From Desulfitobacteriaceae bacterium (GTDB taxonomy: Bacteria; Bacillota; Dehalobacteriia; Dehalobacteriales; Dehalobacteriaceae): a stretch of 64,000 bases of DNA. How positions within the stretch are numbered: the stretch's first letter is position 1; every line of letters starts with the position of its first letter. Of this stretch, positions 2,557-59,811 are shown piece by piece. The notes under the pieces were generated by a model. The model saw only the letters and a list, made by a program, of their open reading frames with translations, had not been told where the DNA came from and did not search any database. The stretch lies in the NCBI GenBank assembly GCA_028709045.1, contig JAQVXR010000001.1, forward strand, positions 31,221-95,220, in the 5' to 3' direction. A program made the translations under genes and the position numbers.

Positions 2557-3897
2557 ATGGAAAAACGGTTGTTGAAATTTATCCGCATGCTTAGGGGTTC
2601 CGGGGTAAGAATTTCCCCCGGTGAATTGACTGAATGCCTCAAGGCGATAAAGCATTTTGGTATTTCCGACAGGGATATGTTTTATCGTCTCTTGAAAGCA
2701 ACATTGATAAAGGCGGAGACAGATCGGGAGATATTTGACCTTGCTTTCAGATTATTTTTTCTGGGAGAAGTGGAAAAGCCTCCTGTATTGAATTGTTCCG
2801 GAAAATACGACGGGTTTACTTCATCTGTTGACGGCTCCGGGACGGGAAAGGCGGGAATGGGGGCAGCTTCCAGGCAGCTTTATCAGGCTCTTCGGGAACG
2901 TAACGGAGAGCTTTTATCCGAGATGGTTCAGAAGCAGTTAGCCGGGCTTCGGTTTAAAGAAGAAAAAATTGATGAATTGGTGCATCGGGTCAAGGTTAAG
3001 ATGGAATGGTTTATGGTGGAAAATGCTGTTGAACGAGACGGGCGCGAAGGAGAAGCTGCTTACCAGGTTCTCAAAGATCTTGAGGATTTCTTAAGGAAGA
3101 GTGTGGAAAAGACCATTGTCAAAAAACGAGGCGAGGAAATAATCGAGGAAATTTTATCTGACGAGAACCTGAGAACCAAAGATTTTGGAGCACTGAATGA
3201 AAGCCAAGTTAAAGAAATGGAAAAAAGAATTGACCGGCTGGCCCATATCCTGGCATCCCGTTATTCGTATCGGCTAAAGCCGGCAAAAACGGGCAGAGTA
3301 GATATGCGTCGAATGTTGCAGCGTGCCGCACGGACAGGCAGAACTCCGGAAAAGCTCTATTACCAAGATAAGGTGATGAACAAACCTTCATTAATTGTGC
3401 TTTGTGATGTTTCAGGGTCTGTGGCTGTTTACAGTGCTTTTTTACTTCAGCTTATTTATGCGATGTCCCGGCGCTTTGAAGATATTAGGACTTTTTTATT
3501 TGTTGATGAGGTGGCTGAAGTAACGCCGGATCTCAAAAAAAGTACTGTCCGGGAGGGGGTAACGGAGGCTTTGTCCCGGGCAAAATGTTCGCGACTGGGG
3601 ATTTCGAATTTTGGTCAGGTTTTTGAACTTTTTCGGAAAGAGTATCAGCATGTTCTGAACCCAAAGAGTTCATTAATTATTTTGGGAGATGCTAAAAATA
3701 ATTGGTATCCTCCCCGAGATGAAGAACTCGCTTTTTTGTCCCAACAAGTGAAACGGGTGGTTTGGCTAAATCCGGAGCCTATGGGGGAATGGAATAAGGA
3801 AGATAGTATTATCGGCAGGTATGCACTAAGCTGCAGTGCTGTCCTGGAATGCCGCAATCTGGAACAACTGGAGCGAGCTATCTGTAAAATTGTCTAA
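2557..3897 (+). CDS. VWA-domain protein, CoxE-like
   Basis: C-terminal VWA fold with MIDAS-like LIVLCDVSGSV. Divergent from the MoxR ATPase, the usual pairing. Start moved to ATG 2557 behind GGAGGG (track start 2536). Confidence 0.8.
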   Translation: MEKRLLKFIRMLRGSGVRISPGELTECLKAIKHFGISDRDMFYRLLKATLIKAETDREIFDLAFRLFFLGEVEKPPVLNCSGKYDGFTSSVDGSGTGKAGMGAASRQLYQALRERNGELLSEMVQKQLAGLRFKEEKIDELVHRVKVKMEWFMVENAVERDGREGEAAYQVLKDLEDFLRKSVEKTIVKKRGEEIIEEILSDENLRTKDFGALNESQVKEMEKRIDRLAHILASRYSYRLKPAKTGRVDMRRMLQRAARTGRTPEKLYYQDKVMNKPSLIVLCDVSGSVAVYSAFLLQLIYAMSRRFEDIRTFLFVDEVAEVTPDLKKSTVREGVTEALSRAKCSRLGISNFGQVFELFRKEYQHVLNPKSSLIILGDAKNNWYPPRDEELAFLSQQVKRVVWLNPEPMGEWNKEDSIIGRYALSCSAVLECRNLEQLERAICKIV

Positions 3898-4019: not shown

Positions 4020-5390
4020 TTGGGTAACAGAGCGGGGCGGGAGAAATTTTCCACCGGTCTGGCGGCTTTTTTTGCTACCTTGGGGTCCGCCTTAGGTCTG
4101 GGAAATATTTGGAAGTTCCCCTATTTAGTAGGGGAAAATGGGGGAGGAGCATTTCTTTTCATTTATCTTCTGTGCGTAATTTTCGTTGGTATTCCGGTGA
4201 TGATTTGCGAGTTCTATATCGGCCGTAAGACCAGGAAAAATGCTGTTGGAGCTTTTCAAAAGATAGGGACTAATCCGGCGTGGAAGATCATTGGTTACCT
4301 GGGAGTTTTGTCGGCTTATCTAATTATGTTTTTTTATAGTTGTGTTGCCGGGTGGGTTTATTCTTATGTTTTTAAAGCATTGAAAGGCGATTTTAATGCT
4401 ATCAGTGCCCACTCTGTTGAGGCGGAGCTGACAAAAGCCGTTGTCGGGCCGATATCGCCCCTGTTCTGGCAGCTGGTTGTATTAATAGTGGTATCTGTCG
4501 TTTTGATCTGCGGAGTGAAAAGGGGAATTGAACGGGTAACGAAAACACTGCTTCCCGTCTTATTTATTCTAATTATTATCTGTGCTATCCGGGCAATGAC
4601 CCTTCCCGGTGCTTTTCAAGGCCTCTACTTTCTTTTCCATATAGATTTTTCCCAGTTAACACCCAATATAATTCTGATGGCATTAGGGTTGGCCTTTTTT
4701 AAGCTTTCTTTGGGGATGGGTACCTTGATTACCTATGGCAGTTACTTTACCGAAAACAATAATATGATAACGACGGCGATTAAAGTGGCTTTGTCCGACA
4801 CAGTTGTTTCCTTGCTTGCCGGAATTGCGATCTTTCCGACCGTGTTTTCTTTTAGCATGGAGACAGGTGCCGGTCCGGGGTTACTTTTTCTCACAATTCC
4901 CTTGGTGTTTTCTCAGATTCCTTTCGGGAATATTCTCCTTGCAGCTTTTTTCTTTTTGACATCTATAGCTGCTACTACTGCCATGATTTCCATCGTTGAG
5001 GTATTGGTAGCTTACCTGTCCGAGGAGAAGGGGATGTCCAGAACTAAAGCAGTGATTTTTAATGCTACTCTGATTATGTTTATCGGAATGCTGGCGACTC
5101 TTTCAGCCGATAGGGCAAGTATCTTAGGGGATGTACATATTTTTGGAAGGACATTTTTTCAGTTGTTTGATTTTACGTCATCCAATGTTATTCTCCCTAT
5201 AGGAGGGCTGCTTATCGTGATCTTTGTTGGTTGGGTTGGAGCTAAGGAAGAATTTAGATATGAACTCTCAAATCAGGGAATGTTAAAGACGGATTGGCTG
5301 ATTAGTATTTTCTATTTTTTTATTAAATATGTGGCGCCGGTTCTTTTGGCGGTTGTTTTTTTAAACTCAATTGGCTTGTTTAGGATATAA
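4020..5390 (+). CDS. Sodium-dependent transporter, NSS/SNF family
   Basis: GLGNIWKFPY signature near the N-terminus; polytopic hydrophobic profile; TTG start behind GGAGAG. Confidence 0.85.
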   Translation: MGNRAGREKFSTGLAAFFATLGSALGLGNIWKFPYLVGENGGGAFLFIYLLCVIFVGIPVMICEFYIGRKTRKNAVGAFQKIGTNPAWKIIGYLGVLSAYLIMFFYSCVAGWVYSYVFKALKGDFNAISAHSVEAELTKAVVGPISPLFWQLVVLIVVSVVLICGVKRGIERVTKTLLPVLFILIIICAIRAMTLPGAFQGLYFLFHIDFSQLTPNIILMALGLAFFKLSLGMGTLITYGSYFTENNNMITTAIKVALSDTVVSLLAGIAIFPTVFSFSMETGAGPGLLFLTIPLVFSQIPFGNILLAAFFFLTSIAATTAMISIVEVLVAYLSEEKGMSRTKAVIFNATLIMFIGMLATLSADRASILGDVHIFGRTFFQLFDFTSSNVILPIGGLLIVIFVGWVGAKEEFRYELSNQGMLKTDWLISIFYFFIKYVAPVLLAVVFLNSIGLFRI

Positions 5391-5651
5391 TTATAAATTA
5401 AGTTTCGGGATAGGCTTTTAAATATGGGTGATGCGTTCTTTTTTTAATCTTGTTTTCTCTTTCACCGCTCATAGGGAAGGGCACTTTTTCTATAAGCAGA
5501 TAAAAAGAAATGCGTAGAAGTTTTAGGGAAATTGACATTGTTTGATTTTTGCAAAGTTCATAAAACAAAAATAAAGGAACAGTAGCAGGATTTACTATAG
5601 GAAAGAAGAAAATTAATATTGGGTTTTGCCAAAAAAATATTTGGAGTGAGC

Positions 5652-9861: not shown

Positions 9862-9889
9862 AAAAGCCTGCAAATTAGTAGGCTTTTTT
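9862..9889 (+). terminator. Intrinsic terminator after ilvN
   Basis: aaaagcct pairs with aggctttt, followed by a T-run ending at 9889. Confidence 0.7.
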
Positions 9890-9890
9890 A

Positions 9891-10030
9891 TACTATCAGA
9901 TAAGTTTATATAGGTTGATACTAAGTGAACTAAGGCTTCTCCCAAAGGACTGGAATCTTGCGCACTGTAAAAAGCATAATACTAGAAATTCTGGTGTGCC
10001 TGCATTAAAGACTTGAAGAAGCCTAGTTTC
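9891..10030 (+). repeat. Intergenic repeat family, copy A (long form, degenerate 3' hairpin)
   Basis: tactatcag..taagtttatatagg..ttgata..taagtgaactaaggcttc + 59-nt insert (9940-9998) + cctgca..agacttgaagaagcctag. Aligns with copies at 25681, 37948, 44529 and 59577. Confidence 0.7.
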
Positions 10031-10261
10031 CTTTATAATACGGTTAACATGGGTTGCAGTAAGTTTGTGCTTTTGCAGGAGTTTGCTTTTCAATGTCGAA
10101 TTATACTTTGTTTAACTAAAAAACAAATATTTATGTTCTATATTGAACTAACTGGTTTTTCTTTACATTTTCAGGCCGCTTTTTTTGGTAGTCGATTTGG
10201 TCTTTCAATACCAGAAAGGGCCGGCCTTATTTTTTGGTAGTATGCACTTGGAGGGTAGAAA

Positions 10262-25432: not shown

Positions 25433-25605
25433 TACGGATGAAGGTAATAGGAGAAGACTTTGGTCGCCGAAGGGGCAAGAAAATACTCTGCCGGGTATTT
25501 TTGAATCTCTCAGGTTTATGACTGTTACCGGACGAACCTCTGGAGAGACTTGGTTGGTTCCAGGCGCCGAAGGATTTATTCTCTCAGGCAAAAGGACAGG
25601 GGAAG
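25433..25605 (+). promoter_or_regulatory. Tandem glycine riboswitch
   Basis: Aptamer 1: ggagaagac..gtcgccgaaggggcaa..aatctctcagg. Aptamer 2: ctctggagagac..caggcgccgaagga..ctctcaggcaaaaggacag. Matches conserved glycine-riboswitch cores and lies upstream of an alanine/glycine symporter. Confidence 0.85.
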
Positions 25606-25645
25606 GCACGCCGGTTGTAAGACCGGATGTTTTCATTTGTTTAGA

Positions 25646-25677
25646 AACCAAGTTCAACTATCTGAGCTTGGTTTTTT
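25646..25677 (+). terminator. Terminator-like hairpin, probable riboswitch expression platform
   Basis: aaccaag (25646-52) pairs with cttggtt (25667-73), followed by a T-run. Confidence 0.6.
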
Positions 25678-25680
25678 GTA

Positions 25681-25803
25681 TTGTCACTATAAGTGCAACG
25701 AGGGTTTCCCCTAAAGGACTGGAATTTCTACGCATTGTAAAAAAGCACAATGCTAGAAATTCTGACGCGCCTGCGTGGAATTCGGTGCAAACCAAGTTTT
25801 CTT
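25681..25803 (+). repeat. Intergenic repeat family, copy B (5'-truncated long form, degenerate 3' hairpin)
   Basis: ttgtcactataagtgcaacgagggtttc + 61-nt insert (25709-25769) with the best-preserved hairpin + cctgcgtggaattcggtgcaaaccaagtttt. Confidence 0.65.
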
Positions 25804-25905
25804 TAGCTTATCAAGGCCGGGGCTGTGCATTTGAAGGAGGGGTTTTCGGAATACTGATCTTTCCGTTTGATGAACCTAATCAAAAATTAACAGGAGGAAT
25901 GACAT

Positions 25906-27255
25906 GTGACCTTTATTGAATTAGTAACAAAAATAGATGATATTGTTTGGGGAGTTCCTTTGTTGGTGCTGTTGGTAGGAACAGGATTATTCTTAACCCT
26001 CAGATTACGGTTTTTATCTTTTCGCAAGCTTCCCCTTGCGTTAAAAATGGTCTTTACCCGTTCAGAAAGCAAGGATGGAGCAGGGGACATTACTCATTTT
26101 CAGGCTTTGATGACTGCTCTTGCCGCAACTATTGGTACAGGTAATATTGTTGGAGTGGCCACCGCAGTTTTTGCCGGCGGACCTGGTGCTGTATTTTGGA
26201 TGTGGGTAACTGCACTGGTCGGGATGGCTACCAAATATGGAGAAGCTGTACTAGCCGTAAAGTATCGAATTGTTGATGATAAAGGGGAAATGGCAGGCGG
26301 CCCCATGTATTATTTGGAGCGGGGCTTAAAGATGAAGTGGCTCGGTGTTTTGTTTGCTGTTTTCGGTGCGATCGCCGCTTTTGGGATTGGCAATATGGTA
26401 CAGTCCAATTCAGTAGCCGGGGCACTTAATGATACATTTAATTTGCCATTGCCTGCAGCCGGGATCATTCTTGCTGTCTGTGTCGGGGTGGTAACTTTAG
26501 GCGGGATCAAAAGCATCGGCCGGGTTTCCGAATGGGTGGTGCCGATAATGGCCGTTATATATGTAATTGGCGCTTTAGTTATTCTGCTGATTAATATAAA
26601 AGCAATTCCGGCGGCAATTGTTTTAATCGTTGAGTCTGCTTTTACCGGACATGCTGCTTTAGGCGGATTTCTTGGTGCTACAATGAAGAAGGCTATTCAA
26701 ATGGGTGTTGCACGGGGGGTTTTTTCCAATGAATCCGGTCTGGGTAGTGCGCCTATTGCTGCGGCAGCAGCGAAAACTGATTACCCGGTGAGGCAGGCAC
26801 TGGTCTCCATGACCGGAACATTCTTAGATACAATTATTGTTTGTTCCATGACCGGTTTAGTGCTTGTGATTACAGGAGCTTGGGCTTCCGGAAAAGAGGG
26901 CGTAGAAATGACCAGACTGGCCTTTGGCTCCGGGCTGCCAGGTAATTGGGGAGGTTTTATTGTTTCTTTCGGAATAATATTCTTTGCCTATTCAACTATT
27001 TTGGGCTGGAGTTACTACGGAGAAAAGTGCATGGAATATCTTTTTGGCTTAAAATTAATTTTACCTTATCGAATTCTTTTTGTTATTATTGTATTTATCG
27101 GCAGTACCATGAAGCTGGATCTGGTTTGGAAAATTGCCGACATTATGAATGGGCTGATGGCAGTTCCCAACTTAATCGGGCTGCTAGGTTTAAGCGGAGT
27201 CATTGTGGCGGAAACCAAATTGTTTTTTGATAAGATTTCCCAAGAAAATAATTAG
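25906..27255 (+). CDS. Alanine/glycine:cation symporter (AGCS family)
   Basis: AGCS-like N-terminus ([19 protein letters not shown]), GAVFWMW; GTG start 8 nt after AGGAGG. Confidence 0.88.
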
Positions 27256-37916: not shown

Positions 37917-37947
37917 TAAAAAAGGCACCTGGCAGGTGCTTTTTTTA
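37917..37947 (+). terminator. Intrinsic terminator after the ThiF-family gene
   Basis: gcacct-ggc-aggtgc flanked by an A-run and seven Ts. Confidence 0.75.
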
Positions 37948-38040
37948 TACTATCAAAAAGTATAAGTTTAAGGTTGATAGTATAAGTGCAACTAAGGCTT
38001 CCGCCTGCGTCTGAGACTTGGCACAAGCCAAGTTTTTTTT
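37948..38040 (+). repeat. Intergenic repeat family, copy C (short form, best preserved)
   Basis: Perfect 9-bp stem tactatcaa/ttgatagta with a 17-nt loop, then taagtgcaactaaggcttc-cg-cctgcgtctgag, then acttggc-acaa-gccaagt and eight Ts. Confidence 0.75.
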
Positions 38041-38563
38041 ATTCGATCGTTCCGAAATTGTCTAAAGGCCAGATGCGGAATATAGCCTTTCCTTTGATAT
38101 CTTCTACGGGAATGAAGGAAACATCGGCACTTCGGCTGTCATGACTGTTCCCTCTGTTGTCCCCCATAACAAAAACTGTATCCGGGGGAACCAGGGTATC
38201 AATATTCCCGTCAGTATAGTCTTCATTAATATATGGTTCTTCCAAGGCTTCTCCATTACGATAAACAACGCCGTCCTCAATAGAAATATGGTCTCCCGCT
38301 AAAGCAATCGTTCTTTTTACGTAATAAGATCCGGCCCGGTCAGGTGCATCAAGTATTACAATATCCCCACGGTCAGGTTCGCTTAAGGCATAAACAATTC
38401 TGTTGGTAAAGAGCCTGTCTTGATTATGCAAGGTGGGATACATGGACTGTCCGTACACCTCGGTGATCTGAAAGAAATAAGTTCTAATTATCAGTGCAAT
38501 AACAACTGCTAAAAGAAAACTCTTCAAATATTCCCAGAGGACACTACTAATTGATTTTTTCAC
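38039..38563 (-). CDS. lepB: Signal peptidase I
   Basis: S26 motifs GQSMYPTL, KR, GDNRGNSHDSR; N-terminal TM anchor. Confidence 0.88.
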   Translation of the reverse strand: MKKSISSVLWEYLKSFLLAVVIALIIRTYFFQITEVYGQSMYPTLHNQDRLFTNRIVYALSEPDRGDIVILDAPDRAGSYYVKRTIALAGDHISIEDGVVYRNGEALEEPYINEDYTDGNIDTLVPPDTVFVMGDNRGNSHDSRSADVSFIPVEDIKGKAIFRIWPLDNFGTIE

Positions 38564-44528: not shown

Positions 44529-44621
44529 TACTACCAGGAACTAAGTTAATATAGGTTGGTATGATAAGTGTAACTAAGGCTTTTGTCTGCGTCAAAGACT
44601 TTGACGCAAGCCCAGTTTTTT
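44529..44621 (+). repeat. Intergenic repeat family, copy D (short form, alternative 3' hairpin)
   Basis: tactaccagg..taagttaatatagg..ttggtatga..taagtgtaactaaggctt, then perfect 10-bp hairpin tgcgtcaaag-a-ctttgacgca, then agcccag and a T-run. Confidence 0.7.
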
Positions 44622-44714
44622 ATATATGGCTGCATATTTATTGGAGCGATCAACTGAAATAATTTACCAACTCATCCTTTTGGGATATAATAAAAGGGGT
44701 GGAGGGAATAACAA

Positions 44715-59509: not shown

Positions 59510-59576
59510 TATTCAAACTTTAAGTCCAACCATAATTCAGCAGTATTATAAGAGAGAATAGTGGCGGTTTCTATGG

Positions 59577-59723
59577 TACTATTCGGAAAATAAGTTTATA
59601 TAGGGCGATAGGATAAGTGCAACTAAGGCTTCCCCTAAAGGACTGGAATTCGATTATAAAAAACACAATGCTAGAAATTCTAGCGCGCCTGCGACTAAGA
59701 CTTGGTGCAAGCCAAGTTTTTTT
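59577..59723 (+). repeat. Intergenic repeat family, copy E (long form, intact 3' hairpin)
   Basis: tactattcgg..ataagtttatatagg..gcgatagga..taagtgcaactaaggcttc + 55-nt insert (59633-59687) + cctgcgactaag + acttgg-tgcaag-ccaagt and a T-run. Confidence 0.75.
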
Positions 59724-59811
59724 ATTTTCTAAGGCATTATGATATAATTGGAAAAAGATTAGGCTCGTTAAATAGTAATTTATATTTGGTGAAATACTGG
59801 AGGCGGAAAAA

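Follow-up and report, generated by a model that had tools for sequence, protein, structure and literature searches.

SPRITE repeats are small AT-rich interspersed elements that occur only in Streptococcus pneumoniae and S. mitis, in about 30 copies (PMC3049150). The repeat family described here, five copies of which lie in the window (the whole 64-kb stretch of DNA analysed), resembles them: both are small, AT-rich and from Bacillota, and in both a stem is followed by a U-rich tract like that of an intrinsic terminator (PMC3049150). Both also have T-rich or A-rich ends that are not real inverted repeats, no detectable target duplication and no known transposase, and both lie near the 3′ ends of genes, many of them convergent, with a lean to the leading strand. 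SPRITE is a single stem of ~18 bp, whereas the present family has two domains (P1, core, and a branched or terminator-like 3′ domain), a T-run target with one empty site, tandem arrays, and hosts in both Bacilli and Clostridia. Architecture and host range, as described for SPRITE, set the two apart.

Elements of the IS200/IS605 family have no inverted repeats, make no target duplication, place their left end 3′ of an AT-rich 4–5-mer, carry hairpins at their ends and target the lagging-strand template (PMC5027513, PMC7290912). Their non-autonomous derivatives, the PATEs, share with the present family the lack of inverted repeats and of duplication, a left end always 3′ of a short AT-rich target, hairpins near both ends, a right end that resembles the target and an overall lean to the lagging-strand-template strand. 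The 3′ hairpin of the present family is 8–9 nt from the right end, as in IS608. In contrast, P1 lies 0–1 nt from the target, whereas the left hairpin of PATEs is ~15–20 nt inside the element (that of IS608 ~19 nt), the target is a degenerate T-run instead of a fixed 4–5-mer, the bias is absent in two genomes, and no TnpA/TnpB or full-length parent was found in the loci examined.

REPs are GC-rich palindromes of 20–40 nt with a 5′ GTAG, usually in inverted pairs and best known in Proteobacteria; the proposed agent of their movement is RAYT (TnpA-REP), an HUH enzyme present in single copy and acting in trans (PMC3333891). REP/BIME and the present family are both highly repeated extragenic hairpins, often located after genes, but the latter has no GTAG-palindrome unit and, as judged by eye, no HUH-like gene between inverted copies. 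Class C group II introns are said to insert after intrinsic terminators, reportedly from work by Robart, Seo and Zimmerly in 2007. They share with the present family orientation-specific insertion at a terminator-type hairpin plus Ts, in Bacillota, but are ~0.7–2 kb long with ribozyme domains I–VI and, usually, a reverse-transcriptase ORF, whereas the present element has 83–155 nt; Rfam scans of the window and 14 loci gave no intron match.

BOX of S. pneumoniae is modular, as is the present family, whose insertion-tolerant middle recalls the variation in boxB number, and bcr1 of the Bacillus cereus group is a transcribed Bacillota MITE of ~155 bp that lands in TTTAT. Both have inverted terminal repeats and target duplication, whereas the present family has neither, and the bcr1 sequences (ATGGGCAG...CTGCCCAT ends; PMC2267715 supplement) are unrelated to it. 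A survey of Firmicutes stem-loops (with Bhal-1, Bcr1, Bant-1, Clop-1 and Clot-1) holds only unrelated sequences, the core motif being present in 0/93 of its families (PMC2267715). A MITE review gave no candidate family, and the core sequence string is absent from the searchable literature.

Copies in the window and elsewhere in Bacillota

The five copies of the window are mutually alignable, all on the + strand and all intergenic. The initial annotation had listed five such copies, and alignment together with a covariance-model scan shows them to be real and far beyond chance. With boundaries refined from sequence and the family consensus, copy A (9891..10035) is a long form with an insert of ~46 nt, ending in TTTCCTTTA; copy B (25679..25805) is an old, decayed long form; copies C (37948..38041) and D (44529..44624) are short forms; and copy E (59577..59724) is a long form. 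A covariance model built from Bacilli copies only recovers copy C with 40.8 bits (E=4e-7), copy D with 33.5 bits and, with filters off, the core of copy E with 20.4 bits. Copies A and B fall below its threshold because of the insert and of decay, and in the 64 kb there is no further copy, all other matches being no better than E=0.28. The parts follow one another in the order first described: 5′ arm, loop, 3′ arm, TAAGTGCAACTAAGGCTTC, an optional insert (~46 nt, present in copies A, B and E), CCTGCG..AGACTT, hairpin and T-run. Copy B had been called 5′-truncated; its P1 is indeed damaged, with the loop and the 3′ arm of the first hairpin gone, but this is not a simple truncation. The orthologue of copy B in a MAG of a close relative reads TTTTTTTATACTATCAGG|ATAAGTGCGAC.

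At least 119 loci match one 17-base core pattern, and covariance-model matches number 119 + 23 in ~1 Mb of loci from Bacilli and Clostridia, with 8 to >16 copies per genome among the matches listed. Carriers include Virgibacillus, Natribacillus, Oceanobacillus, Lentibacillus, Brevibacillus and Sporolactobacillus, as well as Desulfitobacteriaceae/Peptococcaceae MAGs and Ca. Formimonas. The search for copies elsewhere thus points to a dispersed family across two Bacillota classes and not to a local duplication. Its members are ~80–155 bp long, with forms of 83, 95 and 150 nt, and ~45 nt are nearly identical between copies from Bacilli and Clostridia. Head-to-tail tandem copies are found in three loci (L100, L101 and L045). 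Pattern and covariance-model searches found no real copies on plasmids, phages or IMG/VR contigs; 15 pattern matches in IMG/VR have no covariance-model support and are attributed to chance.

The description of the sequence as unclassified holds at both gathering and permissive thresholds of Rfam. With Rfam 15 at gathering thresholds, the window and 14 related loci give nothing at the element, the matches away from it being a glycine riboswitch, SSU rRNA and an L21 leader, and permissive scans of copies C and E return only terminator-driven noise far below thresholds. The family matches no catalogued RNA or repeat family among those searched.

Structure of the element

The structure was drawn by hand with the covariance-model alignment (P1 is misaligned in the raw MAFFT alignment). 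Every copy opens with a 5′ hairpin, P1, whose stem covaries; next comes the invariant core AUAAGUGCAACUAAGGCUU, then a 3′ hairpin that can be branched or terminator-like, and finally UUUUCU(A/U)(A/U)A. The invariant core ATAAGTGCAACTAAGGCTT is likewise found in each copy, the sequence of the 3′ hairpin is nearly invariant and unrelated to that of P1, and each copy has a T-rich right end of its own, TTTTCT(A/T)(A/T)A. In copy C, on the + strand, P1 occupies 37948..37982 (arms TACTATCAA and TTGATAGTA around a loop that contains the conserved AAAGTATAA) and is followed by the invariant core TAAGTGCAACTAAGGCTTC (37983..38001), in which AACT and GGCTT can pair with AAGCC-A-AGTT of the 3′ end to form helix P2. 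The terminator-like hairpin of this copy (38013..38041) reads GAGACTTGGC-ACAA-GCCAAGTTTT and then T8A. A terminator-like site is called in copies C and E.

Pairing is kept in 92% of cells and double changes occur in 26/27 pairs, a value reached by none of 500 shuffles. Covariation is strongest in P1, GC<->AU changes occur in P3, and P2 does not vary. A nested mini-unit has the compensatory changes AACT/AGTT to GACT/AGTC. The 3′ half has two mutually exclusive folds, and the P3 loop tolerates insertions, which give the 83-, 95- and 150-nt forms. Mismatches of the P1 stem are G.T in 48 cases and A.C in 42, that is, about equally frequent, and therefore give no sign of RNA-strand-specific selection, a comparison that is in itself uninformative on RNA versus DNA folding.

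That the element carries no credible ORF is borne out, as no conserved small ORF was seen by eye on either strand of the consensus. There is likewise no sigma-70 promoter inside it, in agreement with the reported lack of a −35/−10 pair, and no promoter at consistent spacing on either strand, within or before the element. A reverse-strand TTGCAC...TATACT pair noticed by eye was rejected as a promoter because its spacing varies between 17 and 21 nt. Likenesses to the Cas9 tracrRNA nexus, a RAT antiterminator, sigma-54 or sporulation-sigma promoters and the group II intron 5′ GUGYG were considered but dropped, as no test supported them.

Target sites and neighbouring genes

Immediately 5′ of each copy there is a T-rich run ending in A or G, and the orientation of the element relative to this run is constant. 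The run, often that of the upstream gene's own terminator, is a context absent from the initial annotation. T accounts for 60–84% of the left flank from −9 to −2, and −1 holds A in 48% and G in 32% of cases, whereas the right flank has no composition signal. The target is a degenerate T-run and not a fixed 4–5-mer, with which the one empty site agrees. Over 81 copies the flanks give no sign of target duplication (longest common substring 3.41, against 3.45 +/- 0.09 after shuffling), and no subfamily has terminal inverted repeats, the ends not being complementary. Copies from Bacilli often have G as the last base of the left flank; their right end is CTAA.

At 42% of insertion sites the T-run is directly preceded by a stable hairpin, compared with 16% for the remaining T5+R sites between genes (p=3e-4). 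Such enrichment behind terminators could reflect survivorship instead of targeting. The strand that is G-rich carries 74/101 copies, and 66/84 where |skew|>0.05, against a background of 46–47% of T-run sites and 66% of ORF coverage. The bias is uneven between genomes (8:7 in Natribacillus, 3:5 in PH28_bin88); in loci from complete genomes 7/7 copies fit it. Flanking genes are functionally unrelated, and no positions are orthologous across genera. The idea that the repeat is a 3′-UTR element finds no support in the 108 instances with neighbouring genes, which show every orientation arrangement, only ~60% of upstream genes being co-oriented. Among 41 convergent cases, 7 have a stop codon built from the terminal TTA or CTA of the element.

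The site of copy C is the only clean empty site obtained. A native bidirectional terminator between a ThiF-like gene and lepB (37925..37947, +; GCACCTGGCAGGTGC + T7A) is the insertion target of this copy. The site is empty in the relative MAG and in Ca. Formimonas. In the relative the identical hairpin is followed by T8A, with lepB immediately after, so that GGTGC-T8A-lepB corresponds to GGTGC-T7A-(94 nt)-lepB in the window. The minus-strand lepB ORF spans 38039..38563, and the TTA with which copy C ends (38039–38041) is therefore this gene's TAA stop read on the other strand; the ORF coordinates agree with the earlier statement that the T-tract of the copy supplies the complement of this stop codon.

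Copy A directly follows the terminator that belongs to an ilvN-like gene (hairpin 9864–9883, T6A 9884–9890), and copy D follows that of an NhaA gene (CCGGGGCGCGTTTTTACCCCGG + T6CA). Copy B sits between the T-run of a glycine-riboswitch terminator and a Na:Ala symporter ORF, and its insertion is common to the window and the relative MAG. Its P1 is mostly deleted and the stem of its 3′ terminator is broken; selection may act against the element at sites where termination would be harmful, the loss of this stem being a case in point. The orthologue of copy D in the relative is also decaying, with a deletion in the 3′ hairpin, among other changes. Between the window and the relative, the shared copies B and D show many substitutions and indels, whereas the adjacent riboswitch is almost unchanged: these older shared copies decay like neutral DNA.

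Copy E separates a VanW-like gene from an aminotransferase gene. No terminator-like site follows the VanW-like gene except the 3′ hairpin of this copy with its T7A, which is probably the working terminator of that gene. In the relative the genes around this position are arranged differently. The flanks of copy E, GGTTTCTATGG and TTTTCTAAGG, both resemble a single GGTTTCCCTTGG of the relative; this TTTCTAnGG similarity is an isolated case.

Mobility and its alternatives

On balance, and with little more than even confidence, we read the family as small non-autonomous mobile DNA repeats of Bacillota that target T-runs. The term MITE-like used for it initially is apt for a dispersed, mobile and non-coding lifestyle, but not in the sense of a canonical MITE, as inverted repeats and target duplication are missing. 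A protein whose gene lies elsewhere would copy or move the element in trans. As the 3′ end of the element is similar to the target, more copies can insert head-to-tail, and insertion at a T-run plus A that overlaps a convergent TAA stop regenerates the stop. As a side effect the element may provide an additional intrinsic terminator or an RNA hairpin. For a selfish element, ~45 nt nearly identical between Bacilli and Clostridia require recent horizontal spread. Counting against mobility, no plasmid, phage or IMG/VR copy that would attest to such spread was found.

Our leading guess at the route, and a tentative one, is that the element moves as single-stranded DNA in a strand-specific way, by “peel-and-paste” as in IS200/IS605, at hairpin-plus-T-run sites exposed during replication. 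A tblastn search with IS200 TnpA gave no match in ~1.3 Mb of loci, and clustering of neighbouring proteins revealed no protein family recurring beside copies. Between inverted or divergent pairs of elements no gene is HUH-like when the translations are read by eye; the ORFs look like ordinary small proteins, one of them resembling a GNAT acetyltransferase. A check of orphan 5′ and 3′ halves found no full-length or long element with these ends. The missing transposase, partner or parent, a P1 only 0–1 nt from the target and the uneven strand bias speak against a route of this type.

A bolder version, which we consider doubtful, would make the family an undescribed pan-Bacillota class of terminator-seeking mobile elements that recognise the intrinsic-terminator hairpin plus T-run, probably as single-stranded DNA, and are driven by an enzyme in trans. 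The 3′ end would then mimic the target, giving tandem arrays and “silent” insertion at stop codons, and the near-invariant 45-nt core would be the recognition site of the enzyme. The driver would be a single-copy HUH-type protein (like RAYT for REPs) or a host replication or repair factor.

A rival reading, which we hold to be unlikely, is a family of structured RNAs with a function: paralogous sRNAs, or a portable module that acts in cis as a terminator or regulator. The working parts would be the 5′ hairpin, a single-stranded UAAGUGCAAC “seed” and the intrinsic terminator, with conservation reflecting the binding of a host factor or target. The architecture is that of a classic sRNA (covarying 5′ hairpin, invariant single-stranded stretch, terminator), and the ~45 nt invariant across bacterial classes, the alternative folds of the 3′ half, the terminator-like sites of copies C and E and the compensatory changes of the mini-unit all suit such a function. 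Yet there is no promoter, each copy begins directly at the T-run before it, and the upstream sequences of different copies have no relation to one another; these points, and loci that are not orthologous, uphold the earlier opinion that a free-standing sRNA gene is the less likely reading. Orientation is independent of the neighbouring genes, there is no functional theme or orthologous placement, old copies decay neutrally with loss of P1 or the terminator, and G.T mismatches are about as frequent in stems as A.C (48 vs 42 in P1). Tandem arrays and insertion polymorphism are better explained by mobility.

Spread with no enzyme at all, by template switching or illegitimate recombination between T-runs, strikes us as quite improbable. 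A nascent strand would stall at a hairpin plus T-run, realign on the 3′ T-run of a donor copy, copy the element and return via the left T-run of the donor. T-runs on both sides of every copy, the failure to find a partner gene, the hairpin adjoining 42% of targets and the overall strand bias are all compatible with this, as are the right T-runs of the window, which vary and at copy C equal the T8A of the empty site in the relative. Among copies from Bacilli, however, TTTTCTAA always forms the right end, irrespective of the left T-run; the right T-run is therefore donor-encoded and not a hybrid of donor and recipient. Moreover, homopolymer microhomology of 6–8 nt is unlikely to give dozens of precise copies per genome in many genera, and the conservation of the core is left unexplained.

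It is very improbable that the family is a canonical MITE, in the sense of a deletion derivative of an IS with a DDE transposase that moves by cut-and-paste or copy-paste and duplicates a short AT-rich target such as TA or TTTAT. The element is like a MITE in its size, copy number and secondary structure and in its place between genes. The junctions of the window subfamily are often TTTAT on both sides (A, C, right side of D and E), so that a short T-rich duplication (TA or TTTAT) is possible in this subfamily only, and the flanks of copy E, both like one stretch of the relative, could be taken in the same sense. Nevertheless, terminal inverted repeats are absent from every subfamily and the 81 instances hold no duplication signal; a left flank often ending in G does not match a right end of CTAA in Bacilli; and the orientation is strictly fixed relative to the T-run, unlike that of DDE elements.

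Least probable of all is RNA-mediated (retro) mobility, in which a U-ending transcript would anneal to the A-run strand of a nicked target and be reverse-transcribed, much as in target-primed SINE/LINE insertion or in the terminator-seeking class C group II introns: the T-run target, often behind a terminator hairpin as in these introns, the T-runs on both sides, the tandem copies and an RNA of element length with a 3′ U-tract, plausible since the element ends in its own terminator, are outweighed by the lack of a promoter to make this RNA, of a reverse transcriptase nearby and of intron domains in Rfam scans, and by a size far too small for a ribozyme. We know of no precedent for such a bacterial SINE.

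If the family does consist of mobile repeats that target T-runs, many Bacillota genomes, from halophilic Bacillaceae to Desulfitobacteriaceae, would carry dozens of copies of an uncatalogued element. Such an element would add or duplicate intrinsic terminators, could give convergent genes their stop codons and could occupy regulatory leaders, as in the gap between glycine riboswitch and gene seen here. It would also break short-read assemblies and confound the prediction of terminators and small RNAs, and a covariance model of the family would be an immediate gain for annotation. The family would provide a tractable case for the movement of small repeats that, like SPRITE, have no inverted ends and no nearby transposase, and it would bear on whether mobile DNA that moves as a single strand generally lands at intrinsic terminators.

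Copies in the window and their architecture

The window contains five copies of the repeat (A to E), or roughly one every 13 kb, and they are far more alike than chance allows. Alignment bears out the initial annotation in that all are real, lie on the plus strand, and fall between ORFs. Their refined limits are 9891–10035 (A), 25679–25805 (B), 37948–38041 (C), 44529–44624 (D), and 59577–59724 (E). C and D are of the short form (94–96 nt), and A and E contain an additional block of ~46 nt between GGCTTCC and GCCTGCG. Copy B had been described as 5′-truncated; what it lost is the loop and 3′ arm of P1 (the 5′ hairpin), and it contains the same block, being thus of the long form. A covariance model made from Bacilli copies only was run on the whole window with filters off. 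Copy C scores 40.8 bits (E-value 4e-7) and D scores 33.5 bits; E is retrieved by its core (20.4 bits), the invariant stretch after P1. The count rests at five because this model gives no further match in the 64 kb better than an E-value of 0.28. The genes beside the copies (acetolactate synthase small subunit, CoA-enzyme activase, Na:Ala symporter, ThiF, signal peptidase, NhaA, CvpA, VanW, and aminotransferase) have no common function.

The 5′-most part of the element is P1, a hairpin of 9–14 bp, followed by the linker and core, A-TAAGTGCAAC-TAAGGCTT. The 3′ domain has two alternative folds: P2 (AACT-AA-GGCTT with AAGCC-A-AGTT) around a small hairpin P3 or, instead of both, a terminator hairpin, (G)GCTTGGCG-loop-AAGCCAAG. 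The T-rich 3′ end is TTTTCTAA in Bacilli and TTTTCTTTA in most Clostridia-type copies, with variants in the window, where a simple terminator scan calls the 3′ hairpins of C and E. When 119 copies are aligned to the model, 92% of the cells pair, a value somewhat inflated because that alignment was fitted to the model; pairing is only 33–51% when partners are shifted by 1–3 columns. Two-sided changes occur in 26 of the 27 pairs, and none of 500 shuffles attains the observed values. Most covariation is in P1; P3 alternates GC and AU (TCGCC/GGCGA vs TCACC/GGTGA), and the sequences of P2 and the terminator stem hardly vary. One can identify three sequence types of P1 (GCAGnTAAGAAAG..., CCAnCAGAAAG..., and TACTnnn...nnnAGTA), in each of which AAAGTATAA is retained within the loop or close to it. 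The forms of 83, ~95, and ~150 nt seen in different lineages result from insertions, which the P3 loop tolerates. At three loci from other genomes (L005, ~10–118; L014, 3685–3830; L040, ~3040–3130, in their own coordinates), this loop holds a nested 50-nt mini-unit, [hairpin]-ATAAGTGCGAC-TAAG-[CCCATAAATGGG]-CAAGTC-TTCTTTA. This unit reproduces the architecture in full, AACT/AGTT having undergone a compensatory change to GACT/AGTC, and could be an internal duplication or the insertion of one element in another.

Distribution and identity of the family

The exact pattern TAAGTG-N0–1-AACTAAGGCTT, scanned in one genome per species, matches at least 119 loci. About 10 of these are chance matches outside Bacillota, and the rest are full copies across two classes of that phylum, which disposes of the possibility, raised initially, that there were no copies elsewhere. 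Among Bacilli and relatives, the hosts are Virgibacillus (many species), Natribacillus halophilus (at least 16 copies), Oceanobacillus, Lentibacillus, Thalassobacillus, Ornithinibacillus, Pseudogracilibacillus, Pullulanibacillus, Sporolactobacillus, Brevibacillus, and a Paenibacillaceae MAG. Clostridia-type hosts are Peptococcaceae and Desulfitobacteriaceae MAGs (that of the window being related to Formimonas), Clostridiales bacterium PH28_bin88, Thermacetogeniaceae, Desulfitispora, and Candidatus Formimonas warabiya. In Oceanobacillus halotolerans, the element lies within a composite repeat of ~270 nt with imperfect inverted ends, ..AGCGCCTACCCCC.. / ..GGGGGTGATCAAGGCGCT.. (L013, L017, L027, L074, L083, L089, L098, and L110), and in this genome it spreads with a second repeat family, either as its passenger or fused to it. 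In the relative MAG JBMNTN01 (L049, 7560–7850), a 5′ piece of the element, comprising a P1 remnant and TAAGTGTAACTAAGGCTTCCGCC, immediately precedes a putative T-box leader (identified by eye, ..GGTGGCACCGCG..) and its terminator, followed by a gene.

The family is still unclassified, as neither the window nor 14 related loci give an Rfam match to it. A Virgibacillus copy has no BLAST hit in plasmid and phage collections, and none of 15 pattern matches in IMG/VR has covariance-model support. The core sequence is absent from the searchable literature and from all 93 stem-loop repeat families of an earlier survey. Identity with bcr1 was rejected, the sequences being unrelated. Judged against Rfam, three sequence collections, and the open-access literature, the family stands outside any named one, and we file it as small non-autonomous interspersed repeats. 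The closest described thing in lifestyle is SPRITE of Streptococcus pneumoniae, which is terminator-like, ends in A/T-runs, has no known transposase, and is enriched at convergent 3′ ends (PMC3049150). However, SPRITE is a single stem found in two species only (PMC3049150), whereas this family has two domains, hosts in two classes, tandem arrays, and a demonstrable target with an empty site. The chief puzzle is the near-identity of ~45 nt between Bacilli and Clostridia when individual copies decay freely; despite this near-identity, neither a vehicle (plasmid or phage) nor a partner gene is seen.

Insertion sites, orientation, and decay

Site C is empty in a related MAG (LepB 91% identical), which has the same terminator hairpin, T8A, and then lepB, whose TAA stop is formed by the last bases of the T-run. 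In the window, the order is hairpin-T7A-[94 nt ending in T8A]-lepB; Formimonas, like the relative, is empty at this site. As noted initially, the last TTA of copy C supplies the stop of lepB (ORF 38039..38563, minus strand), a pattern explained by insertion at a T-run regenerating the stop codon. More generally, of 41 cases with a convergent downstream ORF, 12 have that ORF stopping no more than a few bases from the end of the element, and in 7 of those 12 the stop is the element's terminal TTA/CTA. A short-read Logan contig with identical lepB (L121, SRR22315502_310013) breaks off inside copy C (last ~30 nt); the repeat thus breaks assemblies.

With the copies aligned at the base of P1, T accounts for 60–84% of the left flank at −9 to −2, and the final base is A (48%) or G (32%); the right flank shows no such signal in its composition. 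A stable unrelated hairpin, which is the neighbouring gene's own terminator, stands just 5′ of the T-run in 42% of copies with a clean T-run; at the remaining intergenic T5+R sites of these loci the figure is 16% (odds ratio 3.8, p = 3e-4). In the window, native terminators precede A, B, C, and D, that of B belonging to a glycine riboswitch. The element has no terminal inverted repeats, and there is no signal of target duplication (longest common substring of flanks 3.41 vs 3.45 in shuffled pairs). The flanks of copy E, GGTTTCTATGG and TTTTCTAAGG (59560–59576 and 59725–59734), both resemble the single GGTTTCCCTTGG of the relative (L132, ~1905–1925), which is the data set's only hint of a 9–10-bp duplication; the relative has an additional minus-strand PCC-domain gene at this position. 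Head-to-tail tandems of two or three copies occur at L100 (three copies, 4660–4946), L101 (~5329–5520), and L045 (7456–7698). In them the next copy begins directly after the preceding TTTTCTTTA or TTTTCTAA, the element's own 3′ end resembling its target.

Copies B and D are common to the window and the relative, with many substitutions and indels. Copy B is ~15% diverged while the adjacent riboswitch is almost unchanged; it has lost P1, and the terminator stem is damaged in both copies. Between genera, no copies are at orthologous positions. Taken together, the flanks, native terminators, lack of inverted repeats and duplication, tandems, stop codons, empty site, decay, and non-orthology point to an element that has inserted repeatedly, precisely, and in a specific orientation, its copies then decaying neutrally. 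An island inserted beside a CBS/ACT-domain gene distinguishes two very close relatives of the window organism (L130, 13333–19434; L131, 13054–20206). It has genes for an AAA_13 ATPase, a 911-aa protein without Pfam hit, and an N6_N4 DNA methylase and is, in our reading, a defence island.

Crude ORF calls around 108 copies give all four arrangements of upstream and downstream neighbours (+,+ 26; +,− 18; −,− 18; −,+ 11), with only ~60% of upstream genes co-oriented with the element. Hence it is not tied to a 5′-leader role, nor to the 3′-UTR role proposed initially; ~60% is the value that two independent leading-strand biases would give. The element is on the locally G-rich strand at 74 of 101 loci (p = 3e-6; 66 of 84 where |skew| > 0.05), against backgrounds of 46–47% for T-run sites and 66% for ORF coverage. 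This bias is 7:0 at complete-genome loci; in a Virgibacillus MAG it is 7:1 and in O. halotolerans 8:3, but Natribacillus (8:7) and PH28_bin88 (3:5) lack it; an overall strand bias, uneven between genomes, is suggestive only.

Nature of the element and effect on transcription

The evidence best supports a mobile, non-autonomous repeat whose insertions lie 3′ of T-runs and which adds a second terminator-like hairpin there; among the T-runs, those of intrinsic terminators are enriched through preference or survival. The element is "MITE-like" in lifestyle, as proposed initially, but has neither the inverted repeats nor the duplication signal of a canonical MITE. The leading mechanism, though a doubtful one, would be single-strand transposition of IS200/IS605 type. 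These transposons and their non-autonomous derivatives, PATEs, lack inverted repeats and duplication, have a strand-specific AT-rich target at the left end, hairpins near both ends, and a right end like the target, and are biased to the lagging-strand-template strand (PMC5027513, PMC7290912). The element broadly resembles them in these respects, its 3′ hairpin lying 8–9 nt from the right end and its bias holding overall. Against this, no IS200-type TnpA is found in ~1.3 Mb of loci, the left hairpin sits directly beside the target, which is itself degenerate, and the strength of the bias differs between genomes, so that membership is not established. Nor does any protein family recur beside copies, any HUH-like gene lie between inverted pairs (ORF translations, by eye), or any long element have the same ends.

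A functional sRNA-like RNA family remains as the first rival, given the architecture and 45 invariant nucleotides; however, orientation is independent, decay is neutral, and there is no promoter within the element, as first annotated, or before it, downstream genes having promoter-like sites beyond it. The consensus, read by eye on both strands, likewise has no conserved small ORF. Enzyme-free template switching between T-runs also remains: the variable right T-runs of the window copies make it attractive, but TTTTCTAA, being constant in Bacilli, contradicts it. A canonical DDE-type MITE and RNA-templated insertion remain as well, the former facing the absence of terminal inverted repeats and of a duplication signal.

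As a side effect, the intact repeat probably terminates transcription, and copy E provides the sole terminator-like site downstream of the VanW-like gene. Copy B lies between the terminator (~25646–25678) of a tandem glycine riboswitch (two RF00504 aptamers, 25438–25602) and the ORF of the Na:Ala symporter (25906–27255) that riboswitch and terminator control, the whole interval spanning 25438–25905. Its terminator stem is broken in the window and in the relative MAG alike, as one would predict were an intact second terminator to switch the symporter gene off. Copy B has lost the ability to terminate where a terminator would block the gene.
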